A stretch of 4,346 nt of DNA, taken from the IMG/VR virus record IMGVR_UViG_2681813320_000022; one strand, given 5' to 3'. The stretch's first letter is position 1. The number at the start of each line of letters is the position of its first letter. The notes under the pieces are model-generated. The model made no database searches, had not been told where the DNA came from, and saw nothing but the letters and a program-made list of their open reading frames with translations. Positions 428 to 2,461 of the stretch are shown here, one piece after another. The position numbers and the translations under genes are program-made. The stretch is from a virus (Duplodnaviria > Heunggongvirae > Uroviricota > Caudoviricetes).

Positions 428-2461
428 TTAAGAATCAGCCTGACTCGGGATCAGTTTTTGCCAGATAACTGAAACGTATTTTGCCTGGTAACGGGCGTCA
501 TCAAGTGCATTATGGCGCTCACCTTCGAATGGAATAGCCGTTCTGGCATCGAAGTCTATGGCTTTCCCCAGCTCAACGATTGTGCGTACATCGCGATCGT
601 TGTAGTAACGCCACGGGCAGGGGATCCCCTGCCGTTCGTATGAACGGCGCAAAATCGTGTTGTCGAAGTTGGCTCCATTTCCCCAAACCTGAACAAAAAA
701 TTCACCGGAGTTTTCGTCGATAAATTCTCGCAATTGTAACAGTGCATCATCTAACGGGATTTCATCGGTCATAATGGCAGATTGCGCTTCGCGTGATTGC
801 TTAAGCCACCATTTAATGGTGTCCCGATCAATGACTCCGCCAGCAGTTTCCAGATCGATAGTCTTACTAAATTCCGGTCCCATATCTCCGGTTTGCGGAT
901 CGAAAAATATTGCACCTATTGAGATGATCGGGGCATCAGGATTTTTTCCCATGGTTTCAAGGTCGATCATTAGATGGTCACACGTCCTGCTGGTGGATGT
1001 GATTTCGTGATGACTGTTCACCTTAATTGGGTGATCTGCCGTCTCGCCAGTTTCATTATCGCTATTGTGATGCTGATTGCCGCCAGTGTTCTCCTTGTGT
1101 GGATGTTCAGCGCCTTCCATTTCCTCCGGATCATCTTCCTGAACTTCAACCTGATACTCTTCATCGAATGTTTCTTGGTATGTTGCGTCGCCCATCACCG
1201 CGCCACAATCAGGGCAGTTGCCGCCGCCGGTCTGACCGCAGGCGGTGCAGACTTTTTCCACTTCCTGTTGCGCTACTGGTTCAGGCTGTTTCGTTTCTGG
1301 CTCGTTTTGTAACGCATTTGGACTGTTTTGTTCCGCTTTTTGGTAGTTCCGTTCCGATTCATGCTGGTTCTGGTTCACAGAATCGCGGGTCTGGAGCCCC
1401 TTAACCCATTTCGGATCATTCGGGTCACTAATCCCTTCAACAAATTCACCACGTGATGCAGCAAGCAACTTATCGGCGTCAGGCTGGCTGATATTGGCTG
1501 CCTGCATAATTTTGTTTACTTCGTCAGCGGTAACTTTTATCGGCTCTGGTTGTTCTGAATCTTCAGCGGTATCTACATTTTGCGGTAAGCCCGTGTATGT
1601 GCCATTTTTTCGGGCAAAATATTCTTCTTTTGTGATTTCAGTGGCGCCAGCAGCCAGTGCCTTATCCAGACCAGAGAGTTTGTTTGCGCGACCGTATTTT
1701 TCTCCGTCCTTATCTGCGAAGAGGAAATAGAACGGCCCCTCACGCTCTACAGATGGTTCAGCTTCCGGCGCGGTTTCATTTTTTGGGATATCAGATACCT
1801 CAGTTTCCACTGCATCAGTTTGTGTTTCTGATGACTGGAGAACATCAACAGTGCCCAGGTCTGTTTCTTCATTCTCAAACACGCCCTTTGTCGTCAGGTA
1901 TTCGCAGATATATTTGTTCAGTGCTACGGGATCTTTGTGAATGTCGATCGGACGCTCACGGACAAGGCCAAAAATAGTTTGGCGGTCGTAGCGAAGGGCA
2001 TCAGGCTGTTTGCGCATTGATGCCGAGATACGCTTCCAGTCTTCGCGGTCGTTGTCGATAACTTCTTTTTTTGCCCAGCGATGGATGCTGCCGTCAATGT
2101 TTCCGGCATCCACATCACTAGGCCAGAGAGCGTAGGCCAGTTCGTCATCCAGTGTTTTCCATGTCTGCTTGTATTCGCGATGAATGGCAGCAATGACCGG
2201 GCTGATTTTTCCTGTTGAATTTTCAGTGTACTGTTGATTGGCTCTGGCGCGGGCGAGATCAACAACAGACGTGTATTTTCCGGTTTCCTTGCGTTCACCT
2301 TCGCGACGTTTTTTCCAGATGCGCATCTCTGCCTGAATTTCGGGCCATTTAGCACCAGGAATACATTTATGCTTAACCCACCCAATGGCGTGCAACTTAA
2401 GCTCCGGATACGGGTTATTCCCCTCTGAACAGGCGCGTAAGGACTGGCAAAACGCCCGCAA
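428..2461 (-). CDS. Prophage exonuclease: C-terminal DnaQ-like DEDDh 3'-5' exonuclease domain, central CxxC-x7-CxxC zinc ribbon, acidic/His-rich linker, N-terminal domain of unknown function
   Basis: Uninterrupted 677-codon frame ending in TAA at 430..428. All DEDDh motifs are present in order: Exo I MIDLET (D500/E502, nt 956..964), Exo II [9 protein letters not shown] (D600, nt 662..664), Exo III HNALDD (H650 nt 512..514, D655 nt 497..499). Zinc ribbon [16 protein letters not shown] at nt 1205..1249. The annotated start at 2461 is TTG; the real start may be internal (TTG at 2395 with GGAG SD, or ATG at 2326), so the 5' end is uncertain. Confidence 0.8.
   Translation of the reverse strand: [677 protein letters not shown]

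Follow-up and report, generated by a model that had tools for sequence, protein, structure and literature searches.

A conserved four-cysteine motif, probably metal-binding, shared by a prophage exonuclease remnant and RecE

What is the purpose of four closely spaced cysteines that stand directly ahead of an exonuclease domain, and does the gene that encodes them still matter? The question is raised by a 4,346-nucleotide stretch of DNA (hereafter the window) from the tailed-phage record IMGVR_UViG_2681813320_000022 of IMG/VR, in which an open reading frame (ORF) of the ydfE family carries the arrangement CxxC-x7-CxxC. A preliminary description had placed this four-cysteine spacing at residues 405-419 (nt 1205-1249), and translation of the ORF confirms it exactly. 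The same description set the motif and the linker behind it just upstream of the nuclease, which agrees with the position of the Pfam exonuclease domain at residues 496-667. The features needed first are listed here, in window coordinates.

428..2461, minus strand: ORF of the ydfE-family (phrog_2082) exonuclease, 5'-truncated; 677 codons, with homology from about nt 2410 to the stop at 428
1205..1249, minus strand: CxxC-x7-CxxC motif, residues 405-419 (C405, C408, C416 and C419)
1166..1204, minus strand: segment after the second cysteine knuckle, residues 420-432, near-invariant in 75 unique sequences; a strand is predicted at the equivalent YQE
1250..1396, minus strand: Q/E/N-rich spacer, residues 356-404, between the GISDP motif and the knuckles, varying in length and sequence
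977..1165, minus strand: acidic, histidine-containing linker, residues 433-495, characterised by its composition, by AlphaFold predicted local distance difference test (pLDDT) scores below 50 and by proportions of non-synonymous (pN) and synonymous (pS) differences that are about equal
1097..1126, minus strand: small conserved island of 10 residues inside this linker
461..976, minus strand: Rv2179c-like DEDDh 3'-5' exonuclease domain (PF16473), residues 496-667; 226.8 bits against a cut-off of 27

The answer favoured here, with moderate confidence, is that the four cysteines form a small metal-binding mini-domain, most likely for zinc, inside a disordered acidic tether, and that this mini-domain serves as a protein-docking knob. 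The cysteines would hold a zinc ion and in this way make a short hairpin rigid, and the resulting knob may dock a protein partner or a different region of the protein itself, rather than DNA. The acidic tether would keep the nuclease flexibly attached, and it may also shield the nuclease electrostatically or autoinhibit it.

The motif is unlikely to be a product of chance, since 10 cysteines distributed at random along 677 residues produced a CxxC-x(2-25)-CxxC pattern in only 72 of 200,000 trials (~3.6e-4). Both knuckles bear rubredoxin-type signatures, CxxCG (here CTACG) and CPxCG (here CPDCG), with six residues between them. All four cysteines are kept in 119 of 120 close homologues, in which the loop varies at several positions, as well as in RecE and in 80 of 80 IMG/VR loci. 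A scan of IMG/VR gave only near-identical E. coli prophage copies (>=96%) and so added no diversity. In more divergent proteins that bear it, the motif reads CNTCGRAGGGKCPDC (the E. albertii homologue) and CDTCGQDGGGKCPDC (the representative P0207), again with every cysteine in place. Because the cysteines persist in the close homologues, the IMG/VR loci and RecE while the loop residues vary, they appear to behave as one functional unit. In 75 unique segments, chosen because they contain the motif, the remaining knuckle positions (G, P, G and V) do not vary either, and residues 420-432 probably add a third strand to the mini-domain and belong to the selected unit.

Codon comparisons separate this unit from its surroundings. 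For residues 405-433, the window and RecE differ by 8 synonymous (Sd) and 2 non-synonymous (Nd) changes, a ratio of non-synonymous to synonymous rates (dN/dS) of ~0.05 (Fisher p=4.5e-5); the window and E. albertii differ by Sd 15 and Nd 8 (Fisher p=4.6e-8), and the comparison of RecE with E. albertii gives p=2.3e-4. Overall, the dN/dS of the knuckle segment is ~0.05-0.13, with pS at 0.43-0.77 and pN at 0.03-0.12, while in the same sequence pairs pN is about equal to pS in the spacer and the acidic linker. The spacer also contains an indel relative to RecE, has a dN/dS of ~1-1.5 against it, and is modelled with pLDDT below 50. As judged from these substitutions, the knuckles and the following strand are under strong purifying selection, and the sequences of the spacer and linker appear neutral. 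Separately, the possibility that the DNA itself is conserved as a functional element (a recombination linker) was considered and ruled out, as the synonymous sites of the knuckles are well diverged.

What does seem to be kept in the linker is its charge. Residues 420-495 (76 residues, nt ~977-1204) contain 20 acidic residues (13 Glu and 7 Asp), 7 histidines and 3 Lys or Arg, in keeping with the acidic, histidine-containing stretch that had been noted after the motif. In 18 of 19 long homologues, with both nuclease types represented, the 150 residues ahead of the nuclease have a net charge between -14 and -28, and the number of histidines among the long homologues ranges from 1 to 10. Negative charge is thus the sole conserved property of the linker: the acidic half of the original observation stands, whereas the histidine content is not conserved and the sequence shows no detectable constraint. 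The suggestion of a flexible tether is a reasonable one, given that the segment after the motif is predicted to be disordered (pLDDT below 50).

The preliminary description had tied the putative module to this particular exonuclease, and here it does not hold, as the same module is shared with RecE of the Rac prophage, where it precedes an unrelated nuclease fold. Two further features become relevant at this point.

1033..1475, minus strand: middle module, residues 329-477, aligning with RecE residues ~466-590 at 78% DNA identity over 443 bp
1397..1453, minus strand: GISDP motif of 19 residues, residues 337-355; invariant alignment columns, and pLDDT ~72 in a model of the fragment

DNA similarity between the window and Rac recE is confined to nucleotides 1033-1475. 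At the protein level, BLASTP aligns the window protein with K-12 Rac RecE over ~366 residues at 39% identity, and within this alignment near-identity runs from the GISDP region through the knuckles to ETGE.AD, stopping exactly where the nuclease starts. Residues 517-531 of RecE read CNACGQTGGDNCPDC and lie just ahead of its PD-(D/E)XK nuclease. DUF3799 is found in RecE only, and at that position the window protein has PF16473 instead, complete with the catalytic residues D500 and E502 (IDLET), D600 (NFD), and H650 and D655 (HNALDD). NCBIfam NF007259 (exodeoxyribonuclease VIII) matches residues 100-477, scoring 282.7 bits where 1269 would be required, and covers profile positions 271-600 only. 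Because the nuclease differs and this score falls far under the cut-off, the window protein is classed outside the RecE equivalog family, although it has a RecE-type middle module; the shared module also explains why DEDDh proteins are often mis-annotated as "exodeoxyribonuclease VIII". Furthermore, recT follows recE, whereas no recT lies beside the DEDDh-type gene, and since the DnaQ-type locus lacks an adjacent recT, the module is evidently independent of RecT. Together, the alignments suggest that the motif is part of a portable module of ~150 residues, placed before interchangeable nucleases in Escherichia lambdoid prophages. It exemplifies the exchange of catalytic domains by lambdoid phages behind a common adaptor region.

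No element of the family is more widely conserved than the GISDP motif of this module. It occurs in cysteine-bearing and cysteine-less relatives and with both nuclease types (it is present in L013-L018, P0124, P0127 and P0130), and its segment is constrained in the codon comparison.

The link to RecE gives the motif an experimental context. In two recent reviews, full-length RecE is described as outperforming truncated forms in linear-linear recombination, and its large N-terminal part as being without known function (PMC11611040, PMC11610958); a text search of each review returned no match for zinc. RecE564 and RecE588, the truncated forms in common use, start after the motif and still work in recombination. 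Because these truncated forms work, and because several relatives lack the motif, the knuckle would have an accessory and not a catalytic role. Recombineering relies heavily on RecE, and the present analysis locates a selected, probably metal-binding element in the N-terminal part whose function those reviews leave unclear (PMC11611040, PMC11610958). With four cysteines in ~30 residues, this element is a concrete and cheap target for mutagenesis.

Several observations weigh against a zinc-holding docking knob, and they come from profile searches, structure prediction, sampling, gene neighbourhoods and distant relatives. Scans of the whole protein with Pfam, NCBIfam and PHROGs matched no zinc-ribbon family, and for the isolated 45-residue peptide the best zinc-ribbon model, Pfam DZR, reached 17.4 bits against a cut-off of 27.3; a sequence search of the PDB with this peptide likewise gave nothing significant (best match, the MAT1 RING, at E=0.32). 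AlphaFold was run on a full-length 823-residue homologue with 24 sequences, and separately on a 150-residue fragment with 32 sequences. In the full-length model (823-residue numbering), the helical domains at residues 104-201 and 241-343 and the exonuclease at residues 640-820 are confident, and pLDDT stays below 50, small islands excepted, across the ~300 residues that separate the exonuclease from the helical domains. In the knuckle region it rises to ~50-58, and KVC and YQE are each modelled as a short strand; in the fragment model, where the GISDP region reaches ~72, the knuckles remain at ~52-54 and form isolated bridges only. Neither model docks the knuckle onto another domain. As to sampling, the RecE sequences that bear the zinc-ribbon motif come almost all from one Rac prophage, which leaves few independent comparisons. 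Finally, when gene neighbours were compared for a common partner, none was shared except integrase-family genes: the Rac locus has recT, ralR, rcbA and racC, and the Qin-type locus ydfD and xis.

The distant relatives present a related difficulty. An exhaustive search of 50%-identity representatives with the C-terminal half of the protein returned 11,845 relatives. Among the best 150 of these, most are single-domain exonucleases of ~180-250 residues, and the motif joins the DEDDh domain in only three of the long representatives (P0001, P0121 and P0122), which bears out the earlier remark that a zinc ribbon is not a standard feature of this exonuclease family. P0127 and P0130 possess GISDP.DPKW and the nuclease and lack all four cysteines. 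The close relative P0124 keeps the GISDP motif and the nuclease, and its knuckles and most of its linker are gone, which on alignment looks like a precise loss of these parts. In a scan of one genome per species, the motif was present in all Escherichia and Shigella loci, with either nuclease type, and two metagenome-bin contigs with near-identical recE also carry it. Conversely, loci from Citrobacter, Kluyvera and Klebsiella are without the four cysteines, again with either nuclease type, and keep the GISDP motif and the nuclease. In addition, a natural C419G allele (CPDGG; P0089, P0273 and P0278) occurs on ~10 contigs from different E. coli isolates, and this allele is ready-made material for asking whether the motif matters. 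The motif is therefore confined to one genus-level clade, Escherichia/Shigella, and is dispensable in some relatives. The expectation that the cysteines would be invariant among homologues thus holds within the motif-bearing clade (119/120 and 80/80) and fails in distant homologues, namely those of Citrobacter, Kluyvera and Klebsiella together with P0124, P0127 and P0130.

Some of these relatives carry other motifs in the same region. At the equivalent of window residues 410-425, L013, L015-L017, P0135, P0139, P0144 and P0145 share a hydrophobic motif, G.G(I/V)(F/Y)S(I/V).xL(M/V), and several cysteine-less relatives have a VQMEE motif in the linker, where the window counterpart is EEMEG. These motifs may be homologues of the knuckle or replacements for it.

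How, then, do other explanations compare with that of a docking knob? One is autoinhibition, in which the acidic tether would mimic DNA and fold onto the positive DNA-binding face of the nuclease, with the knuckle as a latch that is released by a partner or by substrate. The acidic tails of the phage single-stranded DNA-binding proteins T4 gp32 and T7 gp2.5 are established regulators of DNA binding, and the net negative charge of the linker is conserved across genera and both nuclease types while its sequence drifts. Yet the full-length AlphaFold model shows no contact of the linker or knuckle with the nuclease (at pLDDT below 50-58), and the linker of P0124 is much shorter. Autoinhibition as the principal function is consequently judged unlikely, if worth keeping in mind.

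A second explanation returns to the preliminary description, which had allowed for interaction of the module with DNA. As a DNA-binding zinc ribbon, the knuckles would contact DNA ends or single-stranded DNA and help to load the tethered nuclease, as in primases, topoisomerase I and TFIIB-like factors. The motif does adjoin two kinds of nuclease that both act on DNA ends, and its sub-threshold resemblances are to nucleic-acid-associated zinc ribbons (DZR and TFIIB). However, the motif and its flanks contain one lysine against many Asp and Glu residues, within 150 residues of net charge -14 to -28, and the motif that takes its place in relatives, G.G[IV]FS[IV].xL[MV], resembles a protein-binding peptide more. 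Given the acidity of the motif and of the residues around it, and given that relatives substitute a hydrophobic peptide motif there, protein docking is favoured over DNA binding, and direct binding of DNA by the module is regarded as rather unlikely.

A more specific version of the docking proposal can be put forward only tentatively, and is doubtful as it stands: the GISDP motif, zinc knuckle and acidic tether might together constitute a portable adaptor, which recruits unrelated nucleases of opposite polarity to a common host or phage partner. Should this be so, the knuckle would be among the elements behind the efficient linear-linear recombination that full-length RecE promotes and truncated RecE does not.

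It might also be supposed that the motif has no present function, and that the cysteines merely persist through recent divergence, with many copies residing in decaying prophages. The window copy is indeed a pseudogene, most of the homologues found are at least 85% identical, the C419G allele exists, and distant relatives are without the motif. Against this, knuckle pS is 0.43-0.77 compared with non-synonymous values of 0.03-0.12, in immediate proximity to a spacer and linker where pN is about equal to pS, and it is the loop residues that vary and not the cysteines; absence of function in the family is hence very improbable. The least probable explanation is a rubredoxin-like iron or redox-sensitive centre, with knuckles that bind iron or form reversible disulfides and couple the protein to redox state: both signatures are rubredoxin-type and there are weak matches to rubredoxin-like zinc-ribbon models, but all matches are sub-threshold, the 7-residue spacing is far shorter than that of rubredoxins, and the loci offer no evident redox partner or redox context.

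If a metal-binding docking knob is thus the most probable role of the motif in the family, a different conclusion applies to the copy in the window, which has lost its beginning.

2400..2419, no strand assigned: deletion or recombination junction, placed from the end of PhiR42_1 homology and from RefSeq features

The window represents a lambdoid prophage integrated next to rspAB in E. coli, with the gene order integrase, excisionase and the ORF at 428..2461, and the rspAB site is that of the Qin prophage in K-12. Of 5426 complete E. coli genomes, ~148 contain >=80% of the window. The intact version of the gene, found in phages such as PhiR42_1, has 2472 nt (823 aa) and sits after a YdfD-family gene, on the cI side of the excisionase. 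Homology with the full-length family homologue of 823 residues begins at window residue ~17-18 (nt ~2410), and DNA similarity between the window and PhiR42_1-type phages ends at nt 2411. Similarly, the phrog_2082 "exonuclease" profile is covered by the window protein at positions 156-822 of 823, so that the N-terminal ~155-163 residues are absent by this match and the protein falls short of a full-length match, and RefSeq labels the window copy a pseudogene, "incomplete; missing N-terminus". At the junction, the first ~163 codons and the upstream operon are gone.

The reading frame at 428..2461 and the nuclease motifs are still intact despite this truncation. However, a promoter scan around it found sites no more numerous than in shuffled sequence, and genes neighbouring the ORF are also decaying or interrupted according to RefSeq. 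Because of the 5' truncation, the lack of promoter-like sites beyond chance and the decaying neighbours, the motif probably lies in a dead gene here. The window copy is most probably a dead gene in a decaying, defective prophage of Qin type, and the motif in it a relic. For this window nothing of functional consequence is involved, as only a remnant of the gene is left.

The surroundings of the ORF offer further observations of the same kind. A remnant of a DUF977 gene on the opposite strand (2400-2651), also without its N-terminus, adjoins the exonuclease remnant (428-2419), and it seems that one deletion removed the entire early and immunity region between the two. An ORF of 118 residues for a methyltransferase dependent on S-adenosylmethionine (2648-3004) ends at a TAA, and the same frame continues over 3005-3093 as WNETQIPVSQILALTDRKPVICQRTGKKR, so that a formerly longer gene seems to have acquired a premature stop; RefSeq nevertheless lists this ORF as intact. 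At 3267-3449 and 3615-4036, RefSeq (coordinates converted) records a DUF7167 gene interrupted by an internal stop and, as the second feature, a hypothetical gene with a frameshift; decay thus extends over the region as a whole. At its right end (~4231-4346) the window finishes in a terminus of the insertion sequence IS1, with the RefSeq IS1A transposase starting at ~nt 4246, and this terminus is the reason why E. coli genomes contain tens of thousands of places that match the window.

Additional conserved regions lie upstream of the module. A helical domain at window residues ~95-197 (nt ~1871-2179; residues 241-343 of P0001) is modelled with pLDDT of 72-90, and is common, at low identity, to RecE residues ~278-355 and to all long relatives. 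A PDB profile search and Pfam scans with window residues 90-200 gave only noise; homologues bear the precomputed Pfam labels PF27430 and PF27432, both of which lie outside the Pfam copy scanned. An island at residues 239-287 (nt 1601-1747) is conserved in the DEDDh-type proteins, P0124 included, and is not in RecE; AlphaFold renders it as a short strand-helix element with pLDDT of ~41-53.

Comparison with known systems helps to place these elements. The exonuclease itself is of a familiar type: the top Foldseek matches of its model are T4 DexA (PDB 8KEL) and RNase T, at E values of 4.5e-10 and better than 1e-6, and the likeness consists of the PF16473-type fold together with the D, E, D, H, D catalytic residues. 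When the whole model was submitted to Foldseek, the exonuclease domain alone was matched. DexA- and RNase T-type enzymes differ in that they are single-domain proteins of ~180-230 residues, without an N-terminal extension, a zinc knuckle or an acidic tether.

With generic four-cysteine zinc ribbons, such as DZR (PF12773), Zn_ribbon_3 and the TFIIB ribbon, the motif has in common two CxxC knuckles (CxxCG and CPxCG) followed by a conserved strand. It differs from them in its unusually short 7-residue spacing, its sub-threshold scores and its low-confidence fold prediction. A description of the motif was not found in the two reviews or in the literature searched on Rv2179c and prophages, on RecE and zinc, or on ydfE, and the motif is unannotated in the libraries searched. 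Even so, it works like a generic zinc knuckle in a flexible linker; as an element it is of an ordinary kind, and the protein family that carries it is a known one.

The K-12 gene ydfE (Qin prophage, pseudogene b1577) is alike in gene family and in chromosomal locus, which is beside rspAB and, in intact phages, downstream of dicB-ydfD. It is 99% identical to the first 256 residues of the 823-residue full-length protein, but only this N-terminal fragment is left, cut by IS2, and it is hence without the zinc knuckle. The window copy retains all but the first ~163 residues, and the two are complementary remnants.

The closest parallel to the motif itself is provided by RecE, in which the GISDP region, the Q/E-rich spacer, the four-cysteine motif and the acidic linker, with its 10-residue island and ETGE.AD, all recur at the same position directly before the nuclease. 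Outside this module, the two proteins are ~24% identical or cannot be aligned. The N-terminus of RecE is PF06630, unlike that of the window protein, and its nuclease is a PD-(D/E)XK 5'-3' exonuclease of double-stranded DNA (DUF3799), whereas the window protein ends in a PF16473 DEDDh exonuclease of 3'-5' polarity.

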